A stretch of 64,000 nt of DNA, from positions 1-64,000 of IMG/VR virus record IMGVR_UViG_3300029267_002600, one strand, 5' to 3'. Of this stretch, positions 19,047-47,145 are shown in pieces (positions within the stretch are counted from its first letter, which is position 1; the number at the start of each line of letters is the position of its first letter). The notes below the pieces were generated by a model that was given only the letters and a program-made list of their open reading frames with translations, searched no databases and had not been told where the DNA came from. Source of the DNA: a virus. Both the position numbers and the translations under genes were made by a program.

Positions 19047-19649
19047 ATGTCTTGGAAAGGCGAATCAAGAAGGCATTCGTTAGCCAGAAAGGGCGTTAAG
19101 ACTAATGTTGATAATCGAAGGCAATTTGATAATAGTAAATTAATAGGAGAAGGAGTTTATAATAAAAGAACATATTTGAATATTTTTACTAATCATATTA
19201 AGAATTTGAGGGTTGAAGATGCAATTATGTTAAGAGATATTATGGAAAGCAGATTAATAAACGCATTATTTGATCATCAATATAGAAAAACGAATAACTA
19301 TCCATCACGATCAGAACAAAAACGGATTCATCAAAAAATACAACTAATGGATATGGATGAATTGGTAGAAAATCTTCAAAAGTATCAAAATTATGGAACT
19401 TCTAATATCTACAAAGTAAAAGATCATGCGGAATATCTTATAGATATAGAAAAACAATCAACAGATATTGTGCATTTAGGAAATACAAAGAAATTGAGAT
19501 GGGGAGATACATTAGTTTATATTCAGGGATCGCCAGATAATACGGCATGGGTAATTCATAAAGGGCTGATTGGAAAACATAACTATGGGGCATATGGTGG
19601 AATAGATAAAGATCCAAATTTAGAAAGAATGTTAATTAGGGATGATTGA
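19047..19649 (+). CDS. WKGESRRHSLARKG-leader family protein 1/25
   Basis: MSWKGESRRHSLARKGVKTNVDNRRQFDNSKLIGEG (degenerate second module). Unique body. Confidence 0.85.
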   Translation: MSWKGESRRHSLARKGVKTNVDNRRQFDNSKLIGEGVYNKRTYLNIFTNHIKNLRVEDAIMLRDIMESRLINALFDHQYRKTNNYPSRSEQKRIHQKIQLMDMDELVENLQKYQNYGTSNIYKVKDHAEYLIDIEKQSTDIVHLGNTKKLRWGDTLVYIQGSPDNTAWVIHKGLIGKHNYGAYGGIDKDPNLERMLIRDD

Positions 19650-19650
19650 G

Positions 19651-20649
19651 ATGGCAGGAAAAGGAAGCGGTTGGAAGAACGAATCAAGAAGGCATTCGTT
19701 GGCAAGGAAGGGCGTAAAGACTAACATAGATCAGGGAAAACGATTTGATGTTTCTAATTTTGTCGCAAGGGGAGAAGGATTATCCAAAAAACTTGATGAT
19801 CTTGATGGTTTAGTATATGAGAGATTCATAATTATAGAAGAAGATCTGAAAGGGTTTATTCGATACAAGGATGAATGGGTTGAATATATACAAACAGAAT
19901 TATCCAAGATGGGCTATGATGAGGGCGATATTGATGATATGAATATTGAAGGATGGACAATCAGGTTACTTCTTGATTATATTGATGATAGATTAGATGT
20001 TCAAACAGGGCAGGAAGTAGATGATCTATCTGTTTGGATAGAAGATTATACTGGAGAGAAGATAGATACAGATGATATTACAGAATTAATATACAATAGC
20101 GTTATACTATTAGATCCAGAATTTAATAGCATTGTAAGGGTAAGAGATGGCTTGGAAGTAGATGTTGAAAGAGAATTGAGCAAGTTAGGATTTGATGAAG
20201 GTCAAATAGAAGATATATATATTGAAGATTGGGCAAGTCAAAGATTATTGGATGAGATTGAAGATGAGATCGGTTGGCAAAGATTATTTTCAAGAACGGA
20301 CACATTAGAAAGTTGGATTAGAGATCGCATAAGGATTAGGGATGAATCACAATTCAAGAGTTCGGGCAAGAGAAAGGACATAGATTTGCCCCAATCCAAC
20401 TTATATTTGAAAGGATTCGGTATGGATAGGAACGGCAATAAGGTAATCAAATTAACCTATCCGAATGGCAGGGGGTTCAGCATACAAACGAATATGAATC
20501 TTCCGATCATACACAGCATGAAACTTGGCAATAAGGATTTGCAGAATTTAACGAAATCAGAATTGAAAGCAATAGAAAGCGAAGTGATAGATTACATTGA
20601 GGGATATGGAAGTAAAGGTCAGCAAGATAGATTGAGGAAATTTAGGTGA
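19651..20649 (+). CDS. leader family protein 2/25, acidic body with internal duplication
   Basis: MAGKGSGWKNESRRHSLARKGVKTNIDQGKRFDVSNFVARG. Duplicated ELSKMGYDEGDIDDMNIEGW / ELSKLGFDEGQIEDIYIEDW. Confidence 0.85.
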   Translation: MAGKGSGWKNESRRHSLARKGVKTNIDQGKRFDVSNFVARGEGLSKKLDDLDGLVYERFIIIEEDLKGFIRYKDEWVEYIQTELSKMGYDEGDIDDMNIEGWTIRLLLDYIDDRLDVQTGQEVDDLSVWIEDYTGEKIDTDDITELIYNSVILLDPEFNSIVRVRDGLEVDVERELSKLGFDEGQIEDIYIEDWASQRLLDEIEDEIGWQRLFSRTDTLESWIRDRIRIRDESQFKSSGKRKDIDLPQSNLYLKGFGMDRNGNKVIKLTYPNGRGFSIQTNMNLPIIHSMKLGNKDLQNLTKSELKAIESEVIDYIEGYGSKGQQDRLRKFR

Positions 20650-20654
20650 TTTAA

Positions 20655-21143
20655 ATGGCATGGAAAGGCGAGAGCAGAAGGCACAGTTTGGCACGAAAGG
20701 GCGTAAAGACTAACATAGATGGTGGCAGAAGGTTTGATGTATCTAACTTTGTTGCAAGGGGGAAGTTAGATTTAAAGGAGTTTCCACCACAGAAGTATGT
20801 GGGAGATGGCAAACTTCCCAATATGTATTGGGTAAGTATCTCCAATCATTACTATTATTTTGATGAAGATTCAAATTCATTAGAAAGCATTACAGAAAGA
20901 GATCCAGATTTCAAGATTGAAGGTGGAACTGTTGCGGTATTTTCAACATTCAGGGAAGCACTTGAATTTGCCGATAAAAACAGTTGGCAGGGAGATGATA
21001 TTACCATAGAAGATAGATTAACAGGTCAAATTTGGGAACAATTTAAGTTTGTTCATATGATAGAAAAGGAAGAATACGAAACCCATGATGATACAAGATG
21101 GACAAAAGAACATATGAAAGAATTAGGAGTTGAGTTTGAATGA
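20655..21143 (+). CDS. leader family protein 3/25
   Basis: MAWKGESRRHSLARKGVKTNIDGGRRFDVSNFVARG. 95 nt are identical to the next copy. Confidence 0.85.
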   Translation: MAWKGESRRHSLARKGVKTNIDGGRRFDVSNFVARGKLDLKEFPPQKYVGDGKLPNMYWVSISNHYYYFDEDSNSLESITERDPDFKIEGGTVAVFSTFREALEFADKNSWQGDDITIEDRLTGQIWEQFKFVHMIEKEEYETHDDTRWTKEHMKELGVEFE

Positions 21144-21778
21144 GTTGGAAAGGCGAGAGCAGAAGGCACAGTTTGGCACGAAAGGGCGTAAAGACTAACA
21201 TAGATGGTGGCAGAAGGTTTGATGTATCTAACTTTGTTGCCAAAGGCGAAGATAGACCAAAAGTAAAATTCATGGGGGAAGGCAGAAGTATGCATGGCTA
21301 TATTGATAGATCGTGGGATGAATACCTATTTGAAGAAGAAGATGGCACGAATATAGAAGTAGTGGTATTTTCTGAACCCGATTGGGATATGTTAAGAGAA
21401 GTTGGAGAAGAAGAAGAAATCAAAGAACAAGATTGGGATGAATTTGTTCTTGATAGAGAAGAAGAATTTTATCAAGAAGGCAATGGAGAAGTTCATGTCA
21501 TATGGGCAGGGGCTTTGGATTTCACAGGAACAGAAAATGAATTTGCAGGTAGGTATCCAGAATTGAACGAGTATTTGAATCTTGGAGATTTATCTGGAAC
21601 ATGGGTTGTAGAAGATATGCCACATGAATTAAAATATCATGCAGAAAAAATGCCACAAGGTCATTATAAAGTAGTTGCAGAAGATAAATCAGGTAGATAT
21701 AGGATAGGATATACAAGCGATCCAGAAGCAATGATTAGAGAAACAGCGAAGGGTTATGACATTAGGAAGGTTAGGTGA
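21140..21778 (+). CDS. leader family protein 4/25, acidic body
   Basis: MSWKGESRRHSLARKGVKTNIDGGRRFDVSNFVAKG. ATGA overlap. Confidence 0.85.
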   Translation: MSWKGESRRHSLARKGVKTNIDGGRRFDVSNFVAKGEDRPKVKFMGEGRSMHGYIDRSWDEYLFEEEDGTNIEVVVFSEPDWDMLREVGEEEEIKEQDWDEFVLDREEEFYQEGNGEVHVIWAGALDFTGTENEFAGRYPELNEYLNLGDLSGTWVVEDMPHELKYHAEKMPQGHYKVVAEDKSGRYRIGYTSDPEAMIRETAKGYDIRKVR

Positions 21779-21783
21779 TTAAA

Positions 21784-22884
21784 ATGGCAGGAAAAGGAAG
21801 CGGTTGGCATGGAGAATCCCGAAGGCATTCTCTTGCAAGGAAAGGCGTAAAGACAACTCCACAAGGGGCAAGAATGAAAACAGTTCCGAAAGGAAGGATT
21901 ATAGATGCCTATGGCATTAAGTTTGATGCACATGGGCAACCAATGGTTGCCGAAGGCATATTGGGAGATCTTTGGGATAAGGCGAAATCCACGATAACAC
22001 AATCCAAATTAACACAGAAGATAAAGGATGTTGGTGGCACGATCAAGCAGAAAGTAACTGGCGTAGGTCAAAAAATAAAAGAAACTGGCGCAAAGATAAA
22101 AGAGAAGGTAACACCATCAAAAGATAAGGTAAAAACATCAACGGTGAAAGCGGATCATCCAATGAGAAGGGGGATGGAAATTCCCAAAGAAACACCGAAA
22201 GGTAAGCATCCAGCAAGGAGAGAGAACGAAGCATTAGCCAAGCAGATGGATAAGGTTGAAAGACAAAAGATAAGTTCAACAGAAGAAGAACTTGAACAAG
22301 CATCCCATTTCGGCAGGAAACCGAGCAAGGAAGAAGTAGATATAGATAACAAGGGCAGGGTTGGGGCATTAAAATCCAAGATTGCTTCGGAAGAAAAGAA
22401 AGTTCCGAGAGAGCAACTTACCGATATGCCAGAAGAAGTCTTTGAAAGCCCTGATGCCGATTCATTGATAGCCATTGCAGAAAATAGTGAAAAACTGATA
22501 GATTACAAGAATGAATTACAGTATGACATCAACATGATAAAGACAGAAGCGAAGCGATTGAAAAAGCGGTTTGAAACTGATGAACGGAAAGAGATTGCGG
22601 ATTTGAATGCTGACAGGGATAAAGCAAGGGCAAATTTCAAGAAGTTCAAAGATAATATAAAAATGAGTGGCATGGATGAAAGCAAGGCGAAGCACAAAAC
22701 CCAATCTAAATTGAATGAGTTAAAGCAAGAGTTTGAGCAAAGGAAGGTAGAGATTGGGGCATTAAAAATGCGAAATAAGGTTACGATAGATTTCTTAAAT
22801 GATCTTACTGACGATCTAACAAGGAATGTAGTAAAGATGGATAAGAAAGTCAAGCAAATGACAGCATCAGGGAAGGTGAAGTAA
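21784..22884 (+). CDS. leader family protein 5/25, Lys-rich coiled-coil body
   Basis: MAGKGSGWHGESRRHSLARKGVKTT. Ends ...MTASGKVK. Confidence 0.85.
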   Translation: MAGKGSGWHGESRRHSLARKGVKTTPQGARMKTVPKGRIIDAYGIKFDAHGQPMVAEGILGDLWDKAKSTITQSKLTQKIKDVGGTIKQKVTGVGQKIKETGAKIKEKVTPSKDKVKTSTVKADHPMRRGMEIPKETPKGKHPARRENEALAKQMDKVERQKISSTEEELEQASHFGRKPSKEEVDIDNKGRVGALKSKIASEEKKVPREQLTDMPEEVFESPDADSLIAIAENSEKLIDYKNELQYDINMIKTEAKRLKKRFETDERKEIADLNADRDKARANFKKFKDNIKMSGMDESKAKHKTQSKLNELKQEFEQRKVEIGALKMRNKVTIDFLNDLTDDLTRNVVKMDKKVKQMTASGKVK

Positions 22885-22885: not shown

Positions 22886-23443
22886 ATGGCATGGAAAGGC
22901 GAGAGCAGACGGCACAGTTTGGCAAGGAAAGGCGTAAGGACAGCAAAGGGTTGCCCCCAGAAAAAGATGGTGGCAAGGGGCAATGAAGATGATGATCGTA
23001 GGGAATACATAAATAGGCAGGTTGCAGAATTTCAAAGGGATTTCTGCCCATATGGTTATCTTGATATAGAACAAGCATTGCTACATTTAGAAGCTTATGG
23101 TCATGGTATAGGATACTTGTTTGAAGCACTTGAAGAATTTGTTGAAAGCACAGGTACAGATAGAAATGATGTAGATATTACATGGATAGCATACGATAGC
23201 ATTCTTCAAGAAATTAGGCAGAAAATAGATTCTGAAATTGGCTTTGACATTATGAATGATGCTGATTATTACGCCTATGGAAATTACATGGCAACATCAT
23301 ACGATTGGAGTTCAGAAGATCAGGAAGCATTGAAATCAGCAATTAAGAATGCAGATATGGAATCAAAACACAACTTGCTTTCGGATGATGATGTAGTAAC
23401 TTGGCTTTCAGAAGTTGATATTGATATTAAGGAGTTGAGTTAA
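22886..23443 (+). CDS. leader family protein 6/25
   Basis: MAWKGESRRHSLARKGVRTAKG. Confidence 0.85.
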   Translation: MAWKGESRRHSLARKGVRTAKGCPQKKMVARGNEDDDRREYINRQVAEFQRDFCPYGYLDIEQALLHLEAYGHGIGYLFEALEEFVESTGTDRNDVDITWIAYDSILQEIRQKIDSEIGFDIMNDADYYAYGNYMATSYDWSSEDQEALKSAIKNADMESKHNLLSDDDVVTWLSEVDIDIKELS

Positions 23444-23868
23444 TGGCATGGAAAGGCGAGAGCAGAAGGCATAGTCTTGCCAGAAAGGGCGTAAAGACAG
23501 CAAAGCCAAGAATGAGGGCATCAGGGAAGAAAGAATTTGGAAATGCATTATCGCCAGAAGGTAAGGCATTATTAAAATCAGAAGGGTTTTCAGAAGATTA
23601 CATAATATTCATTTGGAAATCAGAAATGGATTCCCCACCAAATGTTCCACATTACATGACAATTGATTTTGTATTAGATTCTGAAATGAGAAAAGAATAC
23701 AATGAATTGAGAGAAGATGAAGATGGTATTACTGGAGAATGGTTAAGCCATAATCTTTGGACATTAATAGATAGGGGTTTAGTGGTTGATGTGTATGATG
23801 GTATTAATAGCCCCGAAGAATTGAAAGATAAATATGATGATATAGTATTAATTTATGGAAGGGGATAA
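23443..23868 (+). CDS. leader family protein 7/25
   Basis: MAWKGESRRHSLARKGVKTAKPRMRASGKK. TAATG overlap. Confidence 0.85.
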   Translation: MAWKGESRRHSLARKGVKTAKPRMRASGKKEFGNALSPEGKALLKSEGFSEDYIIFIWKSEMDSPPNVPHYMTIDFVLDSEMRKEYNELREDEDGITGEWLSHNLWTLIDRGLVVDVYDGINSPEELKDKYDDIVLIYGRG

Positions 23869-23869: not shown

Positions 23870-24622
23870 ATGAGTTGGCATAGAGAATCAAGAAGGCACA
23901 GTTTGGCAAGGAAGGGCATTAAAACGGCGAAAGGGCATTTCATGGATACAGATGAAGGCAAAAGAGAAATGAGAGAACCATTACACACAGATCCATTTGC
24001 CACAGGAGATTCACTTCGGGATTATCTTGATTCTCCAGCAGGAGAAGAATATCTTGAACTGCATTGGGAAAGTTTATATGAAGTTCCATTTAATTCATTT
24101 GAAGAAGGCATTCCATATTGGATAGATCATTATGAGAATCTATTGTTAGAAGAAGAAGTATATAGCCGAGAATATACTGATGAATTAATTGAACATGAAC
24201 TTGGCTATCATGATGGCTATGAGATTGGAGAATACAGAACCTTTGATGGCAAGGATTATTATTATGTTGGAAGCGTTTCGGGTGGAAGTGGAGAATTAGA
24301 GTTACAAGCAGATAACGGCGATCTTGTTTATGATGGCATTGGTGATAGTTTCTTCCGCATTTGGAAGCCATTCCCCGAAACATACATTTCATTGGAAGAA
24401 GATAGTTATGAATTAATTCATAACCATAAGACAGTTGCAGAAACCGAAAAAATATCTGAAATGAACAATCCAGATAAAGCATTACAAGATTTAAAAAATA
24501 GGGCATTAAAGAATGGTTGGAAACTTGAACCTATAATATGGGATGATGCAGAAAATAGATTTGAAAAACAGAAATCAATTCCAAGTTATAAGCCAGATAT
24601 ATATGAAGATATGTTTAATTAG
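23870..24622 (+). CDS. leader family protein 8/25, acidic body
   Basis: MSWHRESRRHSLARKGIKTAKG. Track ORF 23855..24622. Confidence 0.85.
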   Translation: MSWHRESRRHSLARKGIKTAKGHFMDTDEGKREMREPLHTDPFATGDSLRDYLDSPAGEEYLELHWESLYEVPFNSFEEGIPYWIDHYENLLLEEEVYSREYTDELIEHELGYHDGYEIGEYRTFDGKDYYYVGSVSGGSGELELQADNGDLVYDGIGDSFFRIWKPFPETYISLEEDSYELIHNHKTVAETEKISEMNNPDKALQDLKNRALKNGWKLEPIIWDDAENRFEKQKSIPSYKPDIYEDMFN

Positions 24623-24632: not shown

Positions 24633-25085
24633 ATGAGTTGGTGGAAACAAAGCGAAAGGCATAGTCTTGCCAGAAAGGGCATCAAGACAGCACAACAGGG
24701 TAAGCCCAAGATCACTAAAGGTATTGCGAATGAGCAAGTGATCAAGCACAAGTTATCCAACAACATTCACAAGAATATTACGGCGTTAGATCGTAAATTG
24801 CGTAAGGTAGCCAATCTTGAAAGCCAGAAAGACATTCAAAGGAATCTTGAAGATGCCATGAAGTTGTATGATTCATTAGGCGAAAAGATAAAAAATCACA
24901 AGCAACGGTATGGCAATATGCCAGATTGGATACAGCATGATTGGGTTCATAATGAAACATTCGACAAGAACGGCAAGATAAAGAAGCAGATGCAGAAGAT
25001 GAGGGAATTAGATCCAAAGAACTTGAAGAAAGAGCAGAACAAGATGTGGAATTTGATAGCGTTAAAGACGGAAAGGAGAAGGTGA
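24633..25085 (+). CDS. leader family protein 9/25 (most divergent leader)
   Basis: MSWWKQSERHSLARKGIKTAQQGKPK. Basic body. Confidence 0.8.
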   Translation: MSWWKQSERHSLARKGIKTAQQGKPKITKGIANEQVIKHKLSNNIHKNITALDRKLRKVANLESQKDIQRNLEDAMKLYDSLGEKIKNHKQRYGNMPDWIQHDWVHNETFDKNGKIKKQMQKMRELDPKNLKKEQNKMWNLIALKTERRR

Positions 25086-25300: not shown

Positions 25301-26113
25301 ATGGCATGGAAGAACGAATCTCGAAGGCATTCGTTGGCAAGGAAAGGCATAAGAACAAACATAGATGATGGCAGAAGGTTTGATGTATCCAACTTTGTTG
25401 CGAAGGGCAAGGGCAGATATACATATCATGGAAGGAAATTAGAATTAGGGGAATTACTTCAGGATGGATACAAATCAGGTAATGATTATTTTCTAATTAT
25501 CCAGTTACAAGATGGTTTCATAATCGGTGGATACATAGATCTTGATGAATACTGGAAAGATGCTGAATATATTAATGAAATCATAGTAGAACCCATGATA
25601 TTCACAGTAGAAGAATTTGATGAAAGACCAATGGAACAGTTATCAAGTGGTTGGGATTTAAGAACAAAGGAAGGAAAAGAGTATTTAAATAGGCACATAA
25701 AGAAGATAGAAGATTTACTGAAAGATTCAAGAGATTTCGAAACAAAAGCCAGATATGAGATAATCAATAAAACCGATTATGCGAAGGATGTTGCAATTGC
25801 TTACAATCAGAACTATGACAATGTGAAGCACACGAAATGGTTTATGAATGCGGTTGAAACAGAATTAGAATCTGATTTCAAATCCGAACAAAGATGGAAG
25901 GAACTGAAGCAAATGGAGAAGAAAAAGGCATCAGGAAAACATCTTTCAGTAAGAAAATTCAATGGAGAAGAATATTACTATACAGGAATAATGGATTCAG
26001 AATCAAAAGAAAGATTAGAAGCGACAGCAAAAGTAATGGGTAGAGGAAAACCATTCAAAATAGTAAGATTAAAGGATGGTTATCATCTTTATGCAAAAAA
26101 GAAGGTGATGTAG
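25301..26113 (+). CDS. leader family protein 10/25
   Basis: MAWKNESRRHSLARKGIRTNIDDGRRFDVSNFVAKG. Internal KKKASG. Confidence 0.85.
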   Translation: MAWKNESRRHSLARKGIRTNIDDGRRFDVSNFVAKGKGRYTYHGRKLELGELLQDGYKSGNDYFLIIQLQDGFIIGGYIDLDEYWKDAEYINEIIVEPMIFTVEEFDERPMEQLSSGWDLRTKEGKEYLNRHIKKIEDLLKDSRDFETKARYEIINKTDYAKDVAIAYNQNYDNVKHTKWFMNAVETELESDFKSEQRWKELKQMEKKKASGKHLSVRKFNGEEYYYTGIMDSESKERLEATAKVMGRGKPFKIVRLKDGYHLYAKKKVM

Positions 26114-26893
26114 ATGGGTTGGAAAGGCGAATCCCGAAGGCATTCGTTGGCAAGGAAAGGCATAAGAACAAACATAGATGATGGCAGAAGGTTTGATGTA
26201 AGTTCTTTTGTTGCAAAGGGCAAGAAGTTGCCAGAAGTGGATTATGGCACAGATGTATGGGAGTTCAGGGTGAATCCAGATGGTTCTATGCGTTTAAGAT
26301 TGGGCAATATGACAACAGCAGGATGGTATTGGACAGGGGATGAAACCGATCTTGGAACATTCTTGGTTAGAATTGTTAATTTCGGAGAGATGGATGAATT
26401 TAAGGAAGCAATGGCAGAAGCAGGAATATCCTTTGATATGTTGAAGCCATTTTTATTGAAGAACATTGATGAACCTGATGGAAATGGTATGTATTCTATT
26501 ACAGGGGATAATGTTAGATGGAAATTTGGAGAAGCGTATGATATTGATGTAGATGAAGAAGTCGAATATTTAACAAGTATGTATGAATTATCTGATGAAG
26601 ATAAGCAGGAGATAAAAGATGAGCATTATTGGAATCTTACAAGAGTTAGTATAGATGATTTTGAGAAAACAAAAGATTATGAGGAAATCAAAGGAGATCT
26701 GGAAGAAGCATTTAAATTATCAGATGATTTTGATGATTTTTCAAGCAATATAAAAGAATTAAAAGAAAATGTATTCTGGCAAATGATAGAATACGATCAA
26801 GAAGTAGAATTTGAAGATTTTGAGAGGGCATTCGATATTTGGAAGGGGAAAAAGAAGAAAGAAGGCAGAACCGTTAAGAAGATCAAGGGGTGA
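26114..26893 (+). CDS. leader family protein 11/25, acidic body
   Basis: MGWKGESRRHSLARKGIRTNIDDGRRFDVSSFVAKG. Confidence 0.85.
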   Translation: MGWKGESRRHSLARKGIRTNIDDGRRFDVSSFVAKGKKLPEVDYGTDVWEFRVNPDGSMRLRLGNMTTAGWYWTGDETDLGTFLVRIVNFGEMDEFKEAMAEAGISFDMLKPFLLKNIDEPDGNGMYSITGDNVRWKFGEAYDIDVDEEVEYLTSMYELSDEDKQEIKDEHYWNLTRVSIDDFEKTKDYEEIKGDLEEAFKLSDDFDDFSSNIKELKENVFWQMIEYDQEVEFEDFERAFDIWKGKKKKEGRTVKKIKG

Positions 26894-34218: not shown

Positions 34219-34222
34219 TAAT

Positions 34223-39144: not shown

Positions 39145-39752
39145 GTTGGAAAGGTGAAAGCCGAAGGCATAGTCTTGCCAGAAAGGGAGTTAAGACAGCG
39201 AAAGGCATCACAAATTCCAAGTATAATGTAATCAACAGCAAGGGTAAGCCCAAGTTGAAGATCGGATTGCCCGATTACAGCAGGGATCAGATAAAGCATC
39301 TATGCCAATTAGCGAATGGCAAAGAATGGATTGCCGAGTTAAATATGGTTAATGGAGATATTCTTATAGATGATATTCAGGTATCGAAGGAAGTTGATCA
39401 TTCTTATTTGCGTTGGAATAAGGGGGATGAAAGCCATAATGTTGGCTACATTCACTTTCATCCCAAGACTTTAATCCCTGAATTTTCCGCACAGGATTTC
39501 GTATTGGCAATAGAGATTCATGATATTCGTGGAAATAAGGGGAATTATCCATATACGATAATGGGCTTGGTATATCCAGATGATAACGATAAGTTACATT
39601 TGAGAATGTATGCGATCAATCCCAAGCAAGATTACAAGCCAATGCTTGAAGGCAGGGAAGTAACAGAAAGGGATTTGAAGGAAGAAATTGATGTCATGAT
39701 CAGCAATCAGGAGTTAATCAAATTGAACAACATAAGTGGAGATATATCATGA
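39132..39752 (+). CDS. leader family protein 18/25 with possible JAB/MPN-like metalloprotease body
   Basis: GTG start, (M)VAIGWKGESRRHSLARKGVKTAKG. HFHPKTLIPEFSAQD approximates the JAMM H-x-H-x7-S-x2-D motif but has one extra residue. A Glu lies upstream (EWIAELNMVNG). Confidence 0.8.
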   Translation: MVAIGWKGESRRHSLARKGVKTAKGITNSKYNVINSKGKPKLKIGLPDYSRDQIKHLCQLANGKEWIAELNMVNGDILIDDIQVSKEVDHSYLRWNKGDESHNVGYIHFHPKTLIPEFSAQDFVLAIEIHDIRGNKGNYPYTIMGLVYPDDNDKLHLRMYAINPKQDYKPMLEGREVTERDLKEEIDVMISNQELIKLNNISGDIS

Positions 39753-40987
39753 AGTCGGGCAAAGGAGAAGTTAGGAACGGCAAAAGAATGAAAGCGATAA
39801 CCATTATGGTATCGTTAGCCATGCTATTTTCTGGATTAATGACAGTAAATGCAACAGCAGGAAATGTTTGGTGGAATAGCAGTTGGAATTACAGTAAAGA
39901 ATTAACATTCGATAATTCCGATCAATCCGAGAATCTAACGAACTTTCCAGTAATGGTTAGATTGACCACATCAAACTTTGATTATTCAAAGTGCAATGCA
40001 GATGGTTCAGATATTAGATTTGTTGATGGCTTAACCGAATTAAGTTACGAATTTGACTTATGGAACAATACTGGAGAAAGCATCTTATGGGTTAATGTGC
40101 CACAAATAGATGGTGAAAGTTACACAGATTCGATAGATCTTTATTACGGCAATGAGAATGCCGTTTCAGGTGAAGATAAGGAAGGCACATGGCATGAAGA
40201 TTATACGATAGTCTATCACATGGGAGAAGCCAATCTCACTCATAACGATAGCACAGCAAATGAATTAGATGGTACTCCATCAGGATTTAATGGAAGTGAA
40301 ACAACAGATGGTATTGTTGGATTAGCAGATGAATTTGATGGTGTAGATGATTGGATTAATATAACTGGAACAGATCTGTTTCCACCAATGCAAAATTGCA
40401 CACAATCCTTTTGGTTTAAATGGAAAGGAACATTCACTCAATGGATTATTGTAATGGGATGTGGAGATTCAGGTTGGGGAAACACAAGCATAGCCATTAA
40501 TCAGGATGATGGTTGGGCGTTATGTGTTCGAAAAAATATTACTGGCACATCTACTTACAACGGACATTATGGAGATTCATTATATGCAGAAGGAGAATGG
40601 ACAAATATCGTGTGCCGACACGATTATCTGAACAATAATTTTTCAATGTTTGTTAATGGAGAACATATAAAAAGTGTCGAATCATATGGTTTAGGTAGTA
40701 ATGTAGGGCATACTTTGAAACTTGGGGCTTTTGGGAATCCAACTGACGATTATTTTAACGGAACATTGGATGAAGTTAGAAGATCCAATAATGTTCAAAG
40801 TGATGATTGGATAAAGGCCGAATATCTATCTATAACAGACAATTTCATAACATTTGGTAATGAGAATCAAGCCCCATTCAGTTGGTTGCCATCACTTGTA
40901 CCACTTGGATTTGCAGTTATTTTAATGATTGTGATCGTAAATTACTTCAATGAATCAATGGGCATGAAAAAGAAAGGTGGTAGATAG
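39749..40987 (+). CDS. DUF2341 + LamG (concanavalin-A-like lectin) surface protein with C-terminal TM anchor
   Basis: WWNSSWNYSKELTFDN...NLTNFPVMVRL...GSDIRFVD...ILWVNVP...IDLYYGNENA matches the DUF2341 pattern. FDGVDDWINI...FWFKW...MFVNGEHI...FNGTLDEVRRSNNVQSDDWIKAEY matches Laminin_G_3. Confidence 0.75.
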   Translation: MKSGKGEVRNGKRMKAITIMVSLAMLFSGLMTVNATAGNVWWNSSWNYSKELTFDNSDQSENLTNFPVMVRLTTSNFDYSKCNADGSDIRFVDGLTELSYEFDLWNNTGESILWVNVPQIDGESYTDSIDLYYGNENAVSGEDKEGTWHEDYTIVYHMGEANLTHNDSTANELDGTPSGFNGSETTDGIVGLADEFDGVDDWINITGTDLFPPMQNCTQSFWFKWKGTFTQWIIVMGCGDSGWGNTSIAINQDDGWALCVRKNITGTSTYNGHYGDSLYAEGEWTNIVCRHDYLNNNFSMFVNGEHIKSVESYGLGSNVGHTLKLGAFGNPTDDYFNGTLDEVRRSNNVQSDDWIKAEYLSITDNFITFGNENQAPFSWLPSLVPLGFAVILMIVIVNYFNESMGMKKKGGR

Positions 40988-42974
40988 GTTGAACAGTTTC
41001 CGAAAATACGGTTTAGGAATCATAATATTATCTATGATTATGCCGTTATTTTCTGGAATTACATTAGGTAAAGATCTCCCACAACCACAAACACAAGCGG
41101 TATTATATTCTGAAGATTTTGATGGTTACAATGATGGTGATATTCCAACCACAGCAGAATGGCATCAGGGAACTGGAAACTATGATCCACAGGTATTTGA
41201 AGTTGATGATGATCAGCAATGGCAATCTGCCCCTAATTCGTTATGGATGAAAAGTTGGAGTTCATGGTTTGCATTTTGTAGATACACAAACAGCACATCA
41301 TTTTCAGATTATACAATCACATTTGATATATATATTAATGCCAGTAATGGATTATATTATTTTTCTACAACAGAAGGAACAAATGAGTGGCATCAGGAAC
41401 AAAGTTTGCATCAACAGGTATTTAGATTACAATTTATGGCAGATGGCACAATTAAATACAATAGTGGTGGATGGATAGATACAGGAATGACATATACTGT
41501 TGGTTGGTATAATTTTACAATTCGACATAATGATACAGATGATAAGGTAGATATTTGGATAAATAACAATCATATAATGAATTGGGCTAATTATAGATGG
41601 GCTTGTGATGGAATAAGAGGAATGCATTTTGGCATATCAGCAAGTGGATCTGTAATTAGAGATATATTCATTGATAATTTTAAAATCGAATCTGAAGAAT
41701 TACCGCAACCGCAATTTAGCAATGTAATAATAACTCCCGATTCAGCAGAATATGATGTAGATTACGTTAATATCACTTGCAATATTACAAATGGAGTGGG
41801 GATAGATAGTGCATATGTAAATATAACAGGATTGGGTAATTACTCTATGGTACAAGGATCGGGAGATATTTGGTATCTGAACCAAACATATTCAAAACTT
41901 GGAACAAATTCATTTTTTATTACTGCCAATGACACATCAAACAATTGGAATAATACAGGTAATTTTTCATTTATAATATATGATACTTTAGCCCCACAGA
42001 TTACCCTTATTAGCGTAAGCCCTGTTCCTCAAGAGTATGATGAAGCAGTTAATGTTACTGCCACAATTCAGAATCATGTTGCAGTAAGTAGTGCATATGT
42101 AAATATAACAGGATTGGGTAATTATTCTATGGTACAAGGATCGGGATATTTATGGCATTTCAATCAATCATTATCTGCCCCTGTTGATATATACACATTC
42201 CATATCGCAAGTAATGACACATCAAACAATTGGAATAATTCAGGGGTTTATTTCTTTGAATTAAAAGATACTACTCCACCCGAAATAATAAATATAGTAT
42301 CTACTCCAAACGAGATCGAATCGGGTTGCAATATGAATATTACAGCAGAAGTAACAGATTTTAGTGGTGTAAATGCAACCATTATTCATTTGCAAATAAT
42401 AACTCCAATCGGAACTACAAACCATACTATGACAAAAGGATCAGGGGATGAATATTATTACAATAATACTTTCGTTTTAAATTCAGAAGTTCAATATTTA
42501 TTATGGAGTAATGATTCGTGGGATAATGTGAATCAATCAGGTTGGAGTTCTTTTTGGGTGAATGATACCACACCACCTGATCTGGATGTATTATATACAC
42601 CATCAACTGAAACTACAAGAACGGATTCGATAAATATCACATTCAACATTACGGATCTTGGAGATATTGATGAAGTTTGGATTAATTTATTCTATCCAGA
42701 TGGTTCAAGCCAAAACATCAGCATGAAGGAAGGGGTAGATGGTTGGTTCTTCAATCAAACCTTTGATGATGTTGGAGAATATCATTATTTTATTGTAGCC
42801 AAAGATAGTAGTAATAATTGGGGCAGATCATCAGAATATTCGTTTGAAATAGAAATGACACAGAACGATTTCATTTGGTCATTAATATTATTTCTGGCAA
42901 TTATGTTTGGGGCAATTGTAGTTACAAAAGGCGTATTGTATGGTGATAAATTTGGGGTGGAAAGGCGAAAGTAG
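40977..42974 (+). CDS. surface protein: jelly-roll/lectin-like N-domain plus four Ig-like repeats and C-terminal TM anchor
   Basis: GTG 40977 or TTG 40989 start. Signal peptide. LYSEDFDGYNDGDIP...IFIDNFKIE. Four units of about 95 aa containing NIT...MV/TKGSGD.WY.N.T...A.D.S.NWNN. Confidence 0.7.
   Translation: MVDRLNSFRKYGLGIIILSMIMPLFSGITLGKDLPQPQTQAVLYSEDFDGYNDGDIPTTAEWHQGTGNYDPQVFEVDDDQQWQSAPNSLWMKSWSSWFAFCRYTNSTSFSDYTITFDIYINASNGLYYFSTTEGTNEWHQEQSLHQQVFRLQFMADGTIKYNSGGWIDTGMTYTVGWYNFTIRHNDTDDKVDIWINNNHIMNWANYRWACDGIRGMHFGISASGSVIRDIFIDNFKIESEELPQPQFSNVIITPDSAEYDVDYVNITCNITNGVGIDSAYVNITGLGNYSMVQGSGDIWYLNQTYSKLGTNSFFITANDTSNNWNNTGNFSFIIYDTLAPQITLISVSPVPQEYDEAVNVTATIQNHVAVSSAYVNITGLGNYSMVQGSGYLWHFNQSLSAPVDIYTFHIASNDTSNNWNNSGVYFFELKDTTPPEIINIVSTPNEIESGCNMNITAEVTDFSGVNATIIHLQIITPIGTTNHTMTKGSGDEYYYNNTFVLNSEVQYLLWSNDSWDNVNQSGWSSFWVNDTTPPDLDVLYTPSTETTRTDSINITFNITDLGDIDEVWINLFYPDGSSQNISMKEGVDGWFFNQTFDDVGEYHYFIVAKDSSNNWGRSSEYSFEIEMTQNDFIWSLILFLAIMFGAIVVTKGVLYGDKFGVERRK
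41703..42855 (+). repeat. four tandem Ig-like domain repeats (coding), two with near-identical DNA
   Basis: 41808-41864 and 42090-42146 are identical at 56 of 57 nt (agtgcatatgtaaatataacaggattgggtaatta[c/t]tctatggtacaaggatcggga). Confidence 0.75.
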
Positions 42975-43365
42975 AAGGCATAGTCTTGCCAGAAAAGGAA
43001 TAAAAACAGGTGGTAAAAGCATGGGCATAAAGATAAAGCCATCAAAGGATACAATAGAGGGCATTCCATTAAGTAAAAATATTGATGGGCATAAATTCAC
43101 ATTAAGAAAGAGCGGTCAATATCAGAAAGATTTCAAGATTAAGATCTCAATTACAGAAGAAGAATACACTAAATGGAAGGAATTACTTGAAAGAAAAGGA
43201 AATCCAAAAGATATGGCAAATCAGATAGCATTCTTCGACATGATAGATTTTGAATTATCGGCAATAAGGGGCGAGGGAGAGATAGATGAAAAGGAATATG
43301 AGATCAATGAAAGAATCAAGAAGGAAATGGAAATGATAAGGCACAAGTTAAATTTGGATGAGTAA
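42952..43365 (+). CDS. leader family protein 19/25
   Basis: TTG start 4 nt after GGTGAT gives (M)GWKGESRRHSLARKGIKTGGKS. Track ORF 42940..43365. Overlaps the end of the upstream surface-protein gene. Confidence 0.8.
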   Translation: MGWKGESRRHSLARKGIKTGGKSMGIKIKPSKDTIEGIPLSKNIDGHKFTLRKSGQYQKDFKIKISITEEEYTKWKELLERKGNPKDMANQIAFFDMIDFELSAIRGEGEIDEKEYEINERIKKEMEMIRHKLNLDE

Positions 43366-43366
43366 T

Positions 43367-43972
43367 ATGTCATGGAAGGGCGAAAGTAGAAGGCATTCAC
43401 TTGCAAGGAAGGGCATCAAGACAGCACAGCAACCAATGATAGCAAGTGCCATGAACCGATCTCAATCAGATACTTCTCCATATTTTGATATGGATCTATC
43501 AGAACATAATCTTCCTTTCATAGCAGATTTGCACGAAGATCCAGAATATAACGATAGGCGAAGGGAGAGAACGCACGAAGTCATTCTAATGACATCAGAT
43601 GAATATCTTCAAGCCATAGATGTGGGTTCAAAGGGCAGGAGTATTCAGATTCATGATTTCAAGTTAGATCCAATCAAAGAAGATATGGAGAAGGGCGATA
43701 AATTCTCCATGCCGTTCTTGGAGTATGATATGGGATACTCAAAGCCAATATTAAGACAGGAAGGCATTCATAGGGCAGTAGCATCAAAAGAGATGGGGCA
43801 TGAACTGATTCCAGTTGTAGTTGTATATCCAAGCACGATTGGAAAATACAGAAAAGTCAGTATGTTAATGTCAGATCTCATAGCAGGAACAATAGATAAG
43901 ACTAAAATTAGATCGAAAGAACAAAGAAGGCAGGAGTATGAGAAGATTTATGGTGAAAGGTGGGATTTATAA
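43367..43972 (+). CDS. leader family protein 20/25 with ParB-like nuclease (ParB/Srx fold) body
   Basis: MSWKGESRRHSLARKGIKTAQQ. PFLEYDMGYSKPILRQEGIHRAVASKEMGHELIPVVVV fits the ParB N-terminal domain pattern (..dG.HR..A....G...iPv.v). Confidence 0.8.
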   Translation: MSWKGESRRHSLARKGIKTAQQPMIASAMNRSQSDTSPYFDMDLSEHNLPFIADLHEDPEYNDRRRERTHEVILMTSDEYLQAIDVGSKGRSIQIHDFKLDPIKEDMEKGDKFSMPFLEYDMGYSKPILRQEGIHRAVASKEMGHELIPVVVVYPSTIGKYRKVSMLMSDLIAGTIDKTKIRSKEQRRQEYEKIYGERWDL

Positions 43973-44046: not shown

Positions 44047-44065
44047 CAATCAGGGGGGCTAACTG

Positions 44066-44185: not shown

Positions 44186-44698
44186 TTGGCATGGAAGGGC
44201 GAATCCAGAAGGCATAGTCTTGCAAGGAAGGGGATCAAGACGGCGAAGCCAGTAATAGCAAGTGGTGTTAGCATTGATAAATTAAAACTCCATAAGAGAT
44301 TACCAAAAGATAAATTAGATAAAAAAATGCAAAATTTATTTTATTATGATGTTGAAGGATTAGAATGTTTTGTAAAGCAATATTTGGAAGAAATGTTCTT
44401 TGATGAAGATAAAAGCGTGATAGATATTGTTGATGTTGTATTATGGGGTAGTTATACTAAAAACGAAGAAAAAGTAGGTTCTGATCTTGATTTCTTATTG
44501 ACATATAATGGAACAGCAAGAGAAGATGGCTTATTCAATTGGATTAATCATGATAATCCAGAAGGGCAACTTATGATAATAGATAGATATGGGAATGAAG
44601 TTAAGATAGATATTACTCCTGTTAATCTACATAGGGAATCAACTACTGAAGAAGAATTAATTAATTATTCAAAAATGGAACAAAGGAGAATTAGATAA
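44186..44698 (+). CDS. leader family protein 21/25 with minimal nucleotidyltransferase (Pol-beta superfamily) body
   Basis: TTG start, (M)AWKGESRRHSLARKGIKTAKPVIASG. VVLWGSYTKNEEKVGSDLDFLL is the G-S-x(9-10)-D-x-D NTase signature. Confidence 0.8.
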   Translation: MAWKGESRRHSLARKGIKTAKPVIASGVSIDKLKLHKRLPKDKLDKKMQNLFYYDVEGLECFVKQYLEEMFFDEDKSVIDIVDVVLWGSYTKNEEKVGSDLDFLLTYNGTAREDGLFNWINHDNPEGQLMIIDRYGNEVKIDITPVNLHRESTTEEELINYSKMEQRRIR

Positions 44699-45150
44699 TG
44701 GCATGGAAGGGCGAATCAAGAAGGCATAGTCTTGCAAGGAAGGGCATCAAGACGGCGAACAAGCCATTAAAATCAGCAGGAAAGAAGTTCAAAAGCCAAG
44801 CAGATCCAGAAGTGTATAAAAAATGGGATAAATTAGTCAATATGAGTTATTCCGAATTGAAGCGATTCATTGATACTGAAGAAGGAAGGAAGGCAGGATT
44901 GAGCAAAGAACAAGCCCGAAAGCAAGGCATCAAATACGGAAGGGAAAGTGCCAAATGGATACTGAAGATGAAGAAAACCCCTGTTAATGAATGGACAGAA
45001 ACCATGTGGGAGTGGGCAAGAAGGCAGAATAGTTTCATAAGCAGAATGCGTGGAAATAAGGGAAAATTGTATGATGAAGAAGGCAATAAAACGAGAAAGC
45101 ACACTTCATTATTGATTTGGGGGCATGATCCCACAAAGGAGAATAAGTAA
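44698..45150 (+). CDS. leader family protein 22/25 with DUF3140-like body
   Basis: MAWKGESRRHSLARKGIKTANKP. VNMSYSELKRFIDTEEG...HTSLLIWGHDP recalls DUF3140 (VNMS..EL..WL ... W.YSLMNWGHDP). This rests on memory only. Confidence 0.8.
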   Translation: MAWKGESRRHSLARKGIKTANKPLKSAGKKFKSQADPEVYKKWDKLVNMSYSELKRFIDTEEGRKAGLSKEQARKQGIKYGRESAKWILKMKKTPVNEWTETMWEWARRQNSFISRMRGNKGKLYDEEGNKTRKHTSLLIWGHDPTKENK

Positions 45151-45731
45151 TGGCTTGGAAGGGCGAATCACGAAGGCATAGTCTTGCAAGGAAGGGGATT
45201 AAGACAGTAATTAGTGATAAACGAAAGGTTGATGTATCTACATTTGTTGCGAAAGGCAAATTACATCCACAATTATTTACATTTAAGAACAACCCATATA
45301 TGATTGATCAGGGCTATAAAATGAAAGAAATACGGTGGAGTTATCCTGAAGATAAATCAGAAAATTATTTTTTTCATGCAACATTTTTACCAAAATTAGA
45401 ATCAATCAAAAAGGAAGGTTTAAAAGTAGATACAGAAAAATTATGGGATATTTCAGGATCAGGAAAATCATATTTCACTCATATTCCAATAACAGCAATA
45501 GGTTGGGTGATGGGATATATGTATGGGGAAGATGAATATGATGATGAAGAAGATATTTCAATAGTGTTATTAAGGATTCCACCGAAATATAAGATGGAAT
45601 ACGATCACAAAGGAACTTTGAATAGCACACCAAGAAGTAACAATTATTTCACAGAAGAAAATGTTGATCCAAACGATATTGAGATAAAAACAAAGGGTGG
45701 TTGGATTCCTTTAAAGGAGTTTGATATATGA
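45150..45731 (+). CDS. leader family protein 23/25, tentative ADP-ribosyltransferase-like body
   Basis: MAWKGESRRHSLARKGIKTVISDKRKVDVSTFVAKG. FFHAT..I.KEGL, GSGKSYFT and YFTEENV are arranged like an H-Y-E ART fold. This is very tentative. Confidence 0.8.
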   Translation: MAWKGESRRHSLARKGIKTVISDKRKVDVSTFVAKGKLHPQLFTFKNNPYMIDQGYKMKEIRWSYPEDKSENYFFHATFLPKLESIKKEGLKVDTEKLWDISGSGKSYFTHIPITAIGWVMGYMYGEDEYDDEEDISIVLLRIPPKYKMEYDHKGTLNSTPRSNNYFTEENVDPNDIEIKTKGGWIPLKEFDI

Positions 45732-46309
45732 GTTGGAAAGGCGAGAGCAGAAGGCATAGTCTTGCAAGGAAGGGCATTAAGACGGCGAAAGGAGTAAATG
45801 TAGTTGGAAAAACAGATGTTTTATATCCAAGCGTTCAAGATTATTGGCACACAATATTCCCTTTAAAAGTATTCAGATGTGGAGATTCGGAAGAAAAATC
45901 AAAGGTAAGATTCTTTTCAGATGGAGATACAGCAGAAGGATATTGTGATGCGTTTGGTGGAGAGATATATGAAGAAATAATAACAATGAAGAACCCATTA
46001 ATATTACATTCGGGATTGAAAAATAGTTTAACAAAAGAAGAAATGAAAAAATTATTCAAAATATTATTTATAGATAGAGAAAAGAACTACAAAGAGTTGA
46101 TAAAATATAGAAAAGAACAGGGGAAATATACATCAGAATGGGAAGATCTTGAAGAACATGATTTGGGTTTGAGAATAAGAGGGGATGGTTGGAAACCGAT
46201 CATTGAATATGCTATGAAGGAAGGTTATGATGGAATAATAACAAGAGATACAGATGCATTATTAACACATGGAACTGTTAGTTATATAACTTGGAAAGGA
46301 GATAATTAA
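45728..46309 (+). CDS. leader family protein 24/25
   Basis: MSWKGESRRHSLARKGIKTAKGVNV. ATGA overlap. Confidence 0.85.
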   Translation: MSWKGESRRHSLARKGIKTAKGVNVVGKTDVLYPSVQDYWHTIFPLKVFRCGDSEEKSKVRFFSDGDTAEGYCDAFGGEIYEEIITMKNPLILHSGLKNSLTKEEMKKLFKILFIDREKNYKELIKYRKEQGKYTSEWEDLEEHDLGLRIRGDGWKPIIEYAMKEGYDGIITRDTDALLTHGTVSYITWKGDN

Positions 46310-47145
46310 TGGCATGGAAGGGCGAATCACGAAGGCATAGTCTTGCAAGGAAAGGCGTTAAAACAGCATCAGGAAGAAAGAGATCGGATTATTATTCAAA
46401 GGAAAATATTGAGAAAAGGGCAAAGGAAATGGAAGAAATGTACAACAAACAAACCGAAGATAGATTAGAATATCTAAAGAAATACAATCCAGATTGGTTT
46501 GTTGATAAATTAAATGTAGTAAAATGGGGGGATCGGAAATATCGTGAAGATTGGTTAGAGATAACAGGAAGGAACAGAAAAAAGAGATTGCCAGAAGCCA
46601 TTGGAGAAACGGTTGGAATATCAATGGGTTGGGTATCTGACCATTCAGGGTTGGTTCTTCTTACAGATGCAAAATTACTTGAAATTAAAGATAATGGTTA
46701 TGTAATTGTTGAAGTTGATGGAAATGAAGTTGAATTACCATCATACAGAATCAAATGGATTAAAAGAAAAGAGAAGAAGAAAGAACCGAAGAAAAGACCG
46801 AAGAAGATTCCAAAGAATATATCTGGATTAAAATTTAAATTAGAATCAGATACTTACAAAATTGAACAATATACGGCGAATACAGAATGGAATGGCATTC
46901 CGATCTCATTTCATGTTACCATGCGATATGGCACATTTGTAAAATCATGGTATGTAACTTACGGCATCAGTTACATGGAGAAATCTGGATGGATGGGTAT
47001 TGGAGAATTACTTAAAGGCAAGAGTGGAATCAAAAGTAGAAAAGAAGCAAGAGAACTGGCACATGAATTGATAGAAAATGCTTCGATAGAAGAATTAGAA
47101 TCATTATCTGAAGGATATAAGCGGAAAATACAAGAACGAGTTTAA
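46309..47145 (+). CDS. leader family protein 25/25
   Basis: MAWKGESRRHSLARKGVKTASGRKR. TAATG overlap. Internal poly-Lys linker KRKEKKKEPKKRPKKIPK. Confidence 0.85.
   Translation: MAWKGESRRHSLARKGVKTASGRKRSDYYSKENIEKRAKEMEEMYNKQTEDRLEYLKKYNPDWFVDKLNVVKWGDRKYREDWLEITGRNRKKRLPEAIGETVGISMGWVSDHSGLVLLTDAKLLEIKDNGYVIVEVDGNEVELPSYRIKWIKRKEKKKEPKKRPKKIPKNISGLKFKLESDTYKIEQYTANTEWNGIPISFHVTMRYGTFVKSWYVTYGISYMEKSGWMGIGELLKGKSGIKSRKEARELAHELIENASIEELESLSEGYKRKIQERV

Follow-up and report, generated by a model that had tools for sequence, protein, structure and literature searches.

The logic of one address for many proteins is already known. In phage T4, the internal proteins IPI-III and Alt share a short terminal peptide, the capsid-targeting sequence (CTS). 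The cargo-loading peptides of encapsulins and the encapsulation peptides of bacterial microcompartments (BMCs) attach cargo of various kinds to the inside of a protein shell. The N-terminal packaging signals of PVC and other extracellular contractile injection systems (eCIS), like the MIX-type markers of type VI secretion systems (T6SS), are conserved terminal regions that mark polymorphic effectors for a delivery machine. To our knowledge, little is known about how proteins are sorted into the particles of archaeal viruses that are not of the head-tail type, or about the cargo that such particles carry to the next host. Here we describe a basic peptide of ~19 residues, the tag, on 25 largely unrelated proteins encoded in a 64-kb stretch of viral DNA (positions 1 to 64,000 of IMG/VR record IMGVR_UViG_3300029267_002600; hereafter the window). 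The peptide family, its scale, its host context, and a cysteine-free class of putative cargo are undescribed in the libraries and literature searched.

The T4 CTS and the window tag are both short terminal peptides on unrelated soluble proteins encoded near structural genes, and the CTS exemplifies one address for many cargos delivered with the genome. However, the two have no sequence similarity, the window tag family is also C-terminal and internal, and 25 genes per element carry the tag here as compared with only a handful of CTS proteins in T4. Moreover, neither a prohead protease, an HK97-type capsid gene, nor any other head-tail (Caudoviricetes) hallmark is listed among the matches of the untagged window proteins (59 scanned with Pfam, 51 with PHROGs) or of 82 proteins of related elements (Pfam only). 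The encapsulin and BMC peptides are likewise short, conserved, attached by flexible linkers, and placed at either terminus, and the portability and predicted disorder of the tag match theirs. They differ in motif, no encapsulin or BMC shell gene gives a Pfam match in the window or its relatives, the context here is a viral mobile element, and the number of putative cargo proteins is far larger. The eCIS and T6SS MIX markers resemble the tag as conserved terminal regions on polymorphic proteins, but they have no sequence similarity to it, and no sheath, tube, or baseplate gene is found here by Pfam or PHROGs. The BRO-N and KilA-N families of large DNA viruses also comprise many paralogs with a constant N-terminal module and variable C-terminal parts. 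Their modules, however, are folded domains of ~100 residues with known DNA binding, whereas the module here is a peptide of 19-38 residues that Pfam does not match.

A shared peptide on 25 soluble proteins

Between 18 and 48 kb, 25 plus-strand open reading frames (ORFs) open with W-[KH]-x-[ED]-S-R-R-H-S-L-A-R-[KR]-G-[VI]-x-T. A six-frame scan of the 64 kb for RHS.A..G returns 25 matches, all on the plus strand and all at ORF starts, with no further copies elsewhere or in other frames. Ten residues (W, S, R, H, S, L, A, R, G, and T) do not vary in an alignment of the 25 N-termini. A looser expression, W.{6}H.[LMA][AS]..G[IVYF], gives 379 matches on the coding strand and none on the opposite strand of the window and all fetched loci, which excludes chance. 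The gene at 24633 has a degenerate copy, and the same variant is kept in its orthologs in related elements. A preliminary description of the window had listed the 25 genes with their starts and motif and had singled out 24633 as degenerate; the ORF listing and the six-frame scan bear it out on both counts.

The tagged proteins are 137-366 residues long and together take up 5,520 codons (~16.6 kb), or 26% of the window, close to the quarter estimated in the preliminary description. Their genes form three arrays, at 19047-30245 (15 genes), 38075-39752 (3), and 42952-47145 (7). Within the arrays, the junctions between tagged genes range from -13 to +10 nt and include the ATGA and TAATG overlaps noted earlier. 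Shine-Dalgarno sequences of the GGAGG or GGTGA type precede ~22 of the 25 genes by manual count, and three genes start with codons other than ATG (GTG at 39132; TTG at 42952 and 44186).

A second conserved segment, NIDxGRRFDVSNFVA[KR]G, comes after the tag in eight of the 25 proteins and, in degenerate form, in a ninth (19047). The tag is therefore up to ~38 residues long in this subclass, which adds x3-8-R-R-F-D-V-S-x-F-V-A-[KR]-G to the core. Past the tag, the bodies have no mutual BLASTP similarity except for the second segment and the pair 20655 and 21140, which are paralogs (39% over 69 residues). The earlier statement that the bodies are mutually dissimilar thus holds for most of them, but not for this pair, and eight to nine share the second segment.

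The tripeptide A-S-G is ~9-fold enriched in the bodies (36 observed versus 4.1 expected). It usually takes the form [KM]-A-S-G and lies at apparent module junctions, as in the products of 26898-27968, 27974-28444, 25301-26113, and 38075-38599 and in proteins P0050, P0068, and P0075. The extended tag itself ends in FVA[KR]G, and phi-A-[SRK]-G often occurs 8-15 residues after short tags. Modules have been swapped between relatives at junctions of this type, which may be a linker or a protease site.

The segments that encode the tag (51 nt, 25 copies) have a mean identity of 75% (range 57-100%) and mix codons: TCN and AGY for Ser, TTG and CTT for Leu, AGA and CGA for Arg. Among the 25 copies, the proportion of synonymous differences (pS, Nei-Gojobori) is 0.64 and that of nonsynonymous differences (pN) is 0.14. 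The synonymous sites are near saturation and pN is low, indicating that purifying selection acts on the tag peptide, not on its DNA, and that most copies are old. Two pairs of tags are near-identical in DNA: 20650-20755 and 21135-21240 (96%), and 25272-25357 and 38046-38131 (92%, including 29 nt upstream). In addition, the arrays of a syntenic relative have their genes in a shuffled order. Recombination between tags probably occurs, as a side effect and not as a function.

An AlphaFold2 model of 20655, made with the alignment of the 25 paralogs, has a mean pLDDT of 57. Its tag (pLDDT 57-59) is mostly coil with one helical turn at SLAR, and the linker is below 50. The model is enough only to call the tag not confidently folded. 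The tag is accordingly predicted, with low confidence, to be a flexible appendage.

In the structural-type block between 18.3 and 48.6 kb, tagged and untagged proteins separate strictly by solubility. All 25 tagged proteins are without a transmembrane (TM) or signal segment (maximal 19-residue hydropathy, KD19, ≤1.34). Eight untagged proteins are at least 88 residues long, three ORFs of at most 69 residues not being counted. Five of the eight were scored and all have TM or signal segments (≥2.5), and the other three (31606, 34223, and 39749) are assigned to the membrane-anchored or secreted class by eye from their sequences.

The tagged proteins also exclude cysteine. They contain 6 Cys in 5,520 residues (0.11%); the element's remaining soluble proteins have 2.20% Cys, and its membrane and secreted proteins 0.64%. 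The exclusion, roughly 10-20-fold across lineages, recurs in six of eight independent lineage sets, those with a usable soluble control (0-0.33% in tagged proteins versus 1.1-2.4%); the L042 set (tagged, 0.82% Cys) has no soluble control, and the control of the L034 set comprises 368 residues only. Such depletion of cysteine is known to mark proteins whose site of action lies outside the reducing cytoplasm (PMC2823432).

Distribution of the tag and the elements that carry it

No Pfam, NCBIfam, or PHROG model covers the tag in the tagged proteins scanned, and the tag profile has no match at E≤10 among all PDB sequences. The searches thus return no named domain, in line with the preliminary description, which did not recognise the tag as one. 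The loose resemblance to KGG-type stress-protein repeats (PF10685) that it weakly suggested fails, with no match at E≤1 in any of the 25 proteins. The motif strings occur in no paper of the literature searched, subscription journals not covered, and topical searches of that literature return no description of such elements.

An exhaustive search of 1.84 billion cluster representatives with a hidden Markov model (HMM), the approach suggested by the preliminary description once the N-termini were aligned, finds the tag in 847 clusters at E≤1e-3 and in 90 at E≤1e-10, nearly always at residues 1-45. The exhaustive search was needed: a word-indexed protein search with the tag profile gives six short proteins only. 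Clustering the bodies of 160 distinct tagged proteins gives 96 groups, of which 70 have a single member, in accordance with the earlier view of a constant tag with polymorphic cargo. Few bodies are recognisable. In the window, these are a nucleotidyltransferase (44186), a DUF3140 protein (44698), and a phrog_1915-like module (26898), and, by eye, a JAMM motif (39132) and a ParB/Srx-like motif (43367). In the 150 best database matches, Pfam finds only DUF5661, NTP_transf_2, RQC, GNAT, Prok-JAB, HTH_63, and ZapA, in one to three proteins each (Prok-JAB in one).

Pattern scans were restricted to the exact form RHSLARKG[IV], so that divergent tags are undercounted. They find 65 JGI metagenome loci (SMTZ estuary sediment, lake sediments, saline and Antarctic-type lakes, and subsurface), one 61-kb contig in IMG/VR, and 3 of 185,579 species genomes, each time on a contig that resembles a mobile element. 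The three are a contig of a 'WOR-3' bin, an unclassified archaeon, and a Methanosarcinales metagenome-assembled genome (MAG). By tblastn, the tag is found in 0 of 50,697 deposited phage and archaeal-virus genomes and in 0 of 72,556 plasmids. Taken together, the tag is restricted to uncharacterised mobile elements. Cold seeps, anoxic sediments, and saline lakes are the sources of the virus-like contigs (39-166 kb) on which arrays of 4-25 tagged genes, almost everywhere on the same strand, are found. The contig of the 'WOR-3' bin, JAGLYS010000294.1 (27 kb; locus L004), is deposited in a MAG of a 'candidate division WOR-3 bacterium'. Its tagged genes number at least 17, with 17 tag copies within 20 kb. 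It is syntenic with the window and therefore almost certainly mis-binned in the WOR-3 MAG.

The tag has the conserved core G-W-x-x-E-S-x-R-H-[SA]-[LM]-A-x-[KR]-G-[IV]-x-T. In a set of 267 unique tags, drawn from elements of 28-45% GC, 12 of 18 positions are at least 70% conserved; among the core residues, the first G is kept in 87%, E in 85%, S in 85%, R in 94%, S in 70%, L in 89%, A in 93%, K in 71%, I in 80%, and T in 88%. The tag lies within 18 residues of a Met in ~75% of cases, within 25 residues of the stop in 10%, and internally in 15%. The C-terminal form reads ...KKGWxxESxRHSLARKGIKTGRKxxx, followed by the stop codon. Tag-only mini-proteins are found, and a recurrent 64-residue protein consists of a hydrophobic helix, the tag, and a basic tail. 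One relative has the variant GW[KR]xESHRH[RK][LM]AGMGI.T, and in a 166-kb genome described below 14 of 15 consecutive genes carry M[KR]GWYGxRxxH[SGA][LM]ASKG[IV][KR][TS]. About 13 of the 25 window bodies have orthologs in relatives, that of 27974 in six elements, so that the tagged set is part core and part variable. Multi-module bodies have also exchanged modules.

In the window, the S-R-R-H-S-L-A of the tag resembles the S/T-R-R-x-F-L-K of N-terminal twin-arginine translocation (Tat) signals. However, the tag is not followed by a hydrophobic h-region, as indicated by the KD19 values above, the first Arg is kept in only 31% of the 267 tags, the +2 position is Ser or Ala and not hydrophobic, and the C-terminal and internal copies do not fit. 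A Tat signal is therefore rejected.

The tag users are a clade of large uncultivated virus-like elements, probably of archaea. All genes of the window, which lies within a 74-kb contig and has a GC content of ~35%, are on one strand. The untagged genes include those of a DNA methyltransferase, radical-SAM proteins, a PD-(D/E)XK nuclease, a topoisomerase-like protein, SprT, GNAT, and Lar, and of large surface proteins rich in N-glycosylation sequons with beta-helix, PKD, LamG, and DUF2341 domains. In a search for a universal untagged partner gene, limited in scope by 10-kb flanks, the only untagged protein common to five tag-bearing lineages is the ATPase encoded at 4053-5378, which is therefore the signature gene of the group.

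The ATPase has 30.7% identity (E=2e-26) to the 'DnaA-like' ATPase of LSV-48N, a lemon-shaped Haloferax virus (PMC12714723). Many of its homologs match the Pfam family Zot, and one of the 51 untagged proteins scanned, which we read as the ATPase, matches phrog_5484 'DnaA-like'. An AlphaFold2 model (pLDDT 70) gives Foldseek matches that include ATV ORF286, a Nitrosopumilus spindle-shaped virus protein, and Inoviridae Zot, at TM-scores of 0.2-0.35 that indicate a generic AAA+/P-loop fold in which a replication and a packaging role are not separable. Together, alignment and model support a spindle-virus/Zot-like ATPase, and the element thus has the DnaA/Zot-like AAA+ ATPase expected for affiliation with spindle-shaped archaeal viruses. 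A conserved 117-residue hydrophobic protein (17620-17973) is, by position only, a candidate for a small, alpha-helical major capsid protein of the SSV1 VP1 or His1 VP21 type; it has no sequence-family match. Some ATPase homologs are as long as 565-1023 residues (L006 4593-7661; P0158, P0161, P0164, and P0179), and some of these have intein or homing-endonuclease Pfam matches, so that inteins appear to have invaded the ATPase gene repeatedly.

Homologs of the ATPase and of a 1030-residue untagged window protein are found on contigs of 84-166 kb in South China Sea cold-seep metagenomes (PMC9357000). Among these, two ENA ZHAN22-2 scaffolds of 166,021 and 166,051 bp from different cold-seep samples (L075/L076/L079) are circular permutations of one genome of 29-30% GC. 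All genes in the fetched stretches of this genome are on one strand, and they encode PCNA-like, Thg1-like, radical-SAM, and TnpB proteins. At ~166 kb, this would be a very large archaeal virus-like genome. In relatives, a ~790-residue protein, a ~1100-residue TM protein, a ~115-residue hydrophobic protein, and a ~190-residue secreted protein are encoded in this order and followed by the tagged array. Where this architecture is conserved, the marker proteins are 36-72% identical and the arrays have 12-14 tagged genes in 8-10 kb. In the window lineage, the tagged genes lie ~14 kb downstream of the ATPase gene, past the large TM proteins, and in four more distant lineages (L030, L007, L047, and L006) they lie 1-3 kb downstream of it.

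Possible destinations of the tagged proteins

We tentatively propose, as a plausible reading still short of a likely one, that the tag serves as a portable basic address or docking peptide by which soluble proteins are brought out of the reducing cytoplasm, with virions as the most probable destination. Ordinary Sec-type signal peptides and TM anchors would place what belongs to the membrane and surface of the particle, and its soluble components would have the tag in place of a signal peptide or anchor. At the assembly site, the flexible tag would bind one conserved partner, for which the candidates are the packaged genome, the conserved ATPase, and the inner particle face. In this way, dozens of soluble proteins that are otherwise unrelated, core proteins as well as variable enzymes, could be co-assembled, leave the cell with the virion, and be at hand when the next host is entered. 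That the tag is so extremely conserved suggests a partner that evolves slowly, possibly DNA itself. The preliminary description had the tag send its payloads to one destination, for example the virion. The solubility partition and the cysteine exclusion lend indirect support to a common destination, the virion being one that we infer only, and the earlier interpretation is on the whole partly supported. The proposal also draws on the conserved gene order in relatives, the portability and predicted flexibility of the tag, the selection on its peptide, its restriction to mobile elements, and the shared ATPase. The preliminary description further took the bodies for putative effector or anti-defence payloads; since about half of them are kept as orthologs throughout the clade, core structural or assembly roles would fit as well.

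Several points weigh against this proposal. No capsid protein or protease is recognisable, virus status rests on the ATPase, one IMG/VR contig, and gene content, and both AlphaFold2 models are of low to moderate confidence. Several recognisable bodies are enzymes (nucleotidyltransferase, JAMM, GNAT, RQC, and ParB-like) that could equally act in the cytoplasm. Part of the cysteine deficit could reflect how highly charged the bodies are, and zinc ribbons abound in the soluble controls. The tag is conserved across lineages otherwise diverged beyond recognition, which points to a partner such as DNA or a host machine and not to a fast-evolving capsid protein. In addition, 25 or more different proteins would be an unusually large number to package.

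The broadest form of the proposal, in which one 19-residue peptide is a dedicated, genome-wide sorting code for the entire soluble particle cargo (more than 25 proteins and a quarter of the coding capacity), is somewhat more doubtful. If it holds, the peptide would do for soluble proteins what signal peptides do for those of the envelope. It would also be the first known signal for cargo loading in an archaeal virus, and would mark the largest co-packaged, presumably host-delivered, set of proteins in a prokaryotic virus. The tag offers a sequence-only handle on the candidate cargo or effector repertoire of a previously unnoticed virus-like clade, represented by the 847 clusters, and could become a portable loading signal for engineering. 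It also flags very large archaeal mobile elements of cold seeps and anoxic sediments that standard searches for viral hallmarks overlook. Whatever the destination, a conserved and undescribed motif that is abundant in each genome, combined with near-total cysteine exclusion, is a strong lead.

Among other explanations, the one that survives best, though we consider it unlikely, is a sequence-constrained basic hook of the AT-hook or arginine-rich-motif (ARM) kind. Diverse proteins would be tethered by it to nucleic acids of the virus or host, DNA or RNA, within the cell (e.g. in a compartment for replication or transcription), packaging not being its purpose. The net charge of the tag is ~+5, and runs of Lys and Arg often flank it (e.g. 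KKKGW...TGRKKK). Tag-only mini-proteins would suit such a hook, the protein with a helix, the tag, and a basic tail resembles small DNA-contacting coat proteins, and DNA, as a perfectly conserved partner, would explain the extreme conservation of the tag. The RQC, nucleotidyltransferase, HTH, and ParB-like bodies are related to nucleic acids as well. However, a hook leaves the cysteine exclusion unexplained, as it does the confinement of the tag to the structural-type block, since the Cys-rich DNA-handling proteins of the replication half are untagged. The tag also has no detectable similarity to solved nucleic-acid-binding motifs. If the DNA is the packaged genome, the hook is compatible with the virion-addressing peptide proposed above.

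Slightly less probable is a non-classical export or translocation signal that would send proteins out of the cell or into other cells independently of virions. It would be read by a vesicle pathway or by a translocase of its own, possibly formed by the Zot-like ATPase and the large TM proteins, in which case the element may be of a conjugative or secretion type. Cysteine exclusion fits extracellular proteins (PMC2823432), and the tagged proteins have no Sec or Tat features and are co-encoded with large membrane proteins. Several secretion systems likewise have signals at one or the other terminus, a capsid gene is not recognisable, and the short distance from the ATPase gene to the tagged genes in four lineages would suit an export system. 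Yet components of known secretion systems are not detected, spindle-shaped viruses are where this ATPase family is conserved, and internal tags and tag-only peptides would be odd for a translocation signal.

We regard as improbable a short linear motif that binds a host factor (chaperonin, unfoldase or proteasome, ribosome, or modification enzyme) for folding, timed turnover, or modification. The dense, position-specific conservation is typical of peptides that bind in a groove, and the tag is predicted to be disordered and is flexible in position. However, such a motif explains neither the restriction to the structural block nor the cysteine exclusion. The version in which the tag is an R-R-x-S kinase site, raised in the preliminary description, fails: R6 is kept in 31%, R7 in 94%, and S9 in 70% (Ala in 14%) of the 267 tags, and whole lineages have SARHALA, SHRHRLA, or NRQQHSLA instead. 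The resemblance to the HGSLARAGK of ribosomal protein eS30 is at chance level (hhalign probability 8.4% over 8 columns).

Finally, a DNA- or RNA-level element (a cassette-shuffling recombination site or a translation-initiation enhancer) with the peptide as a by-product, for which the shuffled gene order, the two near-identical tag pairs with their upstream bases, and the module exchange could speak, is very hard to credit and as a primary function already largely refuted by the excess of pS over pN with invariant amino acids and by the C-terminal and internal copies.

Gene blocks and minor features of the window

The coordinates of the tagged genes and of the neighbouring blocks are given in Table 1.

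Table 1 Tagged genes and neighbouring features of the window (loci of relatives are designated L).
Feature	Coordinates	Strand	Description
P-loop ATPase, Zot/DnaA-like	4053..5378	+	untagged; signature gene of the group
Untagged block	11965..18937	+	807-aa and 1030-aa proteins (C-terminal TM bundles), 117-aa hydrophobic, 192-aa secreted/anchored
Hairpin, 10-bp stem and T-run	18954..18979	+	upstream of array 1
Tagged gene 1	19047..19649	+	200 aa; opens array 1; degenerate extended tag
Tagged gene 2	19651..20649	+	332 aa; MAGKGSG extension; extended tag; acidic body, in largest body family; 57% ortholog in L004/L080
Tagged gene 3	20655..21143	+	162 aa; extended tag
Tagged gene 4	21140..21778	+	212 aa; extended tag; gene 3 paralog; 56% ortholog in 166-kb genome
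Tagged gene 5	21784..22884	+	366 aa; Lys-rich, coiled-coil-like body
Tagged gene 6	22886..23443	+	185 aa; acidic
Tagged gene 7	23443..23868	+	141 aa
Tagged gene 8	23870..24622	+	250 aa; WHRES variant
Tagged gene 9	24633..25085	+	150 aa; degenerate tag WWKQSERHSLARKGIKT; basic body; conserved ortholog group
Tagged gene 10	25301..26113	+	270 aa; extended tag; 5' region 92% identical to that of 38075
Tagged gene 11	26114..26893	+	259 aa; extended tag
Tagged gene 12	26898..27968	+	356 aa; extended tag; three modules joined at K-A-S-G; N-module similar to phrog_1915
Tagged gene 13	27974..28444	+	156 aa; most widely conserved tagged body (6 elements including 166-kb genome)
Tagged gene 14	28444..29280	+	278 aa; extended tag
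Tagged gene 15	29280..30245	+	321 aa; closes array 1
Untagged membrane/secreted proteins	30245..37966	+	gap between arrays 1 and 2; includes 1247-aa protein with beta-helix and 7x PKD
Tagged gene 16	38075..38599	+	174 aa; opens array 2
Tagged gene 17	38602..39144	+	180 aa
Tagged gene 18	39132..39752	+	206 aa; GTG; JAMM/MPN+ motif HFHPx7SxxD by eye; 70% ortholog in L018/L029
Untagged secreted/anchored proteins	39749..42974	+	gap between arrays 2 and 3; DUF2341 and LamG; Ig-like repeats
Tagged gene 19	42952..43365	+	137 aa; TTG; opens array 3
Tagged gene 20	43367..43972	+	201 aa; ParB/Srx-like motif by eye; body common to distant lineages
Tagged gene 21	44186..44698	+	170 aa; TTG; nucleotidyltransferase (Pfam NTP_transf_2, E=8.5e-6)
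Tagged gene 22	44698..45150	+	150 aa; basic; Pfam DUF3140, E=5e-7
Tagged gene 23	45150..45731	+	193 aa; extended tag
Tagged gene 24	45728..46309	+	193 aa
Tagged gene 25	46309..47145	+	278 aa; closes array 3
Untagged membrane proteins	47186..48594	+	after array 3; 47434-48594 is a paralog of 30245-31609

The hairpin upstream of array 1 is followed by a TATA-like AT-rich box at ~19010-19025 (by eye), so that array 1 looks like a transcription unit of its own. A scan for sigma-70 promoters, a model not relevant to archaea, gives no excess over shuffled sequences, and tRNA and Rfam scans of the window return nothing. The untagged block at 11965..18937 always precedes the arrays in relatives (synteny with L004, L018, L031, and L079-L082) and is a candidate structural or morphogenetic module. 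The membrane-anchored paralogs encoded at 30245-31609 and 47434-48594 come after arrays 1 and 3, respectively, and the same protein comes after the arrays in L004 and L018. The paralogs suggest segmental duplication of units composed of an array plus a surface protein.

Two small basic ORFs (25090-25299 and 37966-38073) adjoin the tagged genes at 25301 and 38075 on the upstream side, and both terminate in ...PKKNRKVK. The 86 nt that span their ends and the tags that follow are 92% identical. The ORF at 37966-38073 reads MARKGIPKRDGSGKGKGLNKGRGGC...; its start is like the tail of the tag (ARKGI), and we take it to resemble the Gly-rich DUF5320 motif. Directly 5' of the tagged gene at 44186, a 39-residue ORF (44066-44185) has the CxxC...CxxC pattern of a zinc ribbon, with a G5...C5 hairpin and T-run at ~43996-44046 upstream of it (by eye).

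In the right half of the window, tandem AATTGTATTACAA-like units at 60250-60321 lie in a non-coding gap and could be iterons or a replication origin. Between 49227 and 61114, many of the replication and accessory genes of this half are preceded by a near-identical ribosome-binding context, AGGAAGTGGAATAAATGG, which is distinct from the GGTGA and GGAGT contexts of the tagged arrays.

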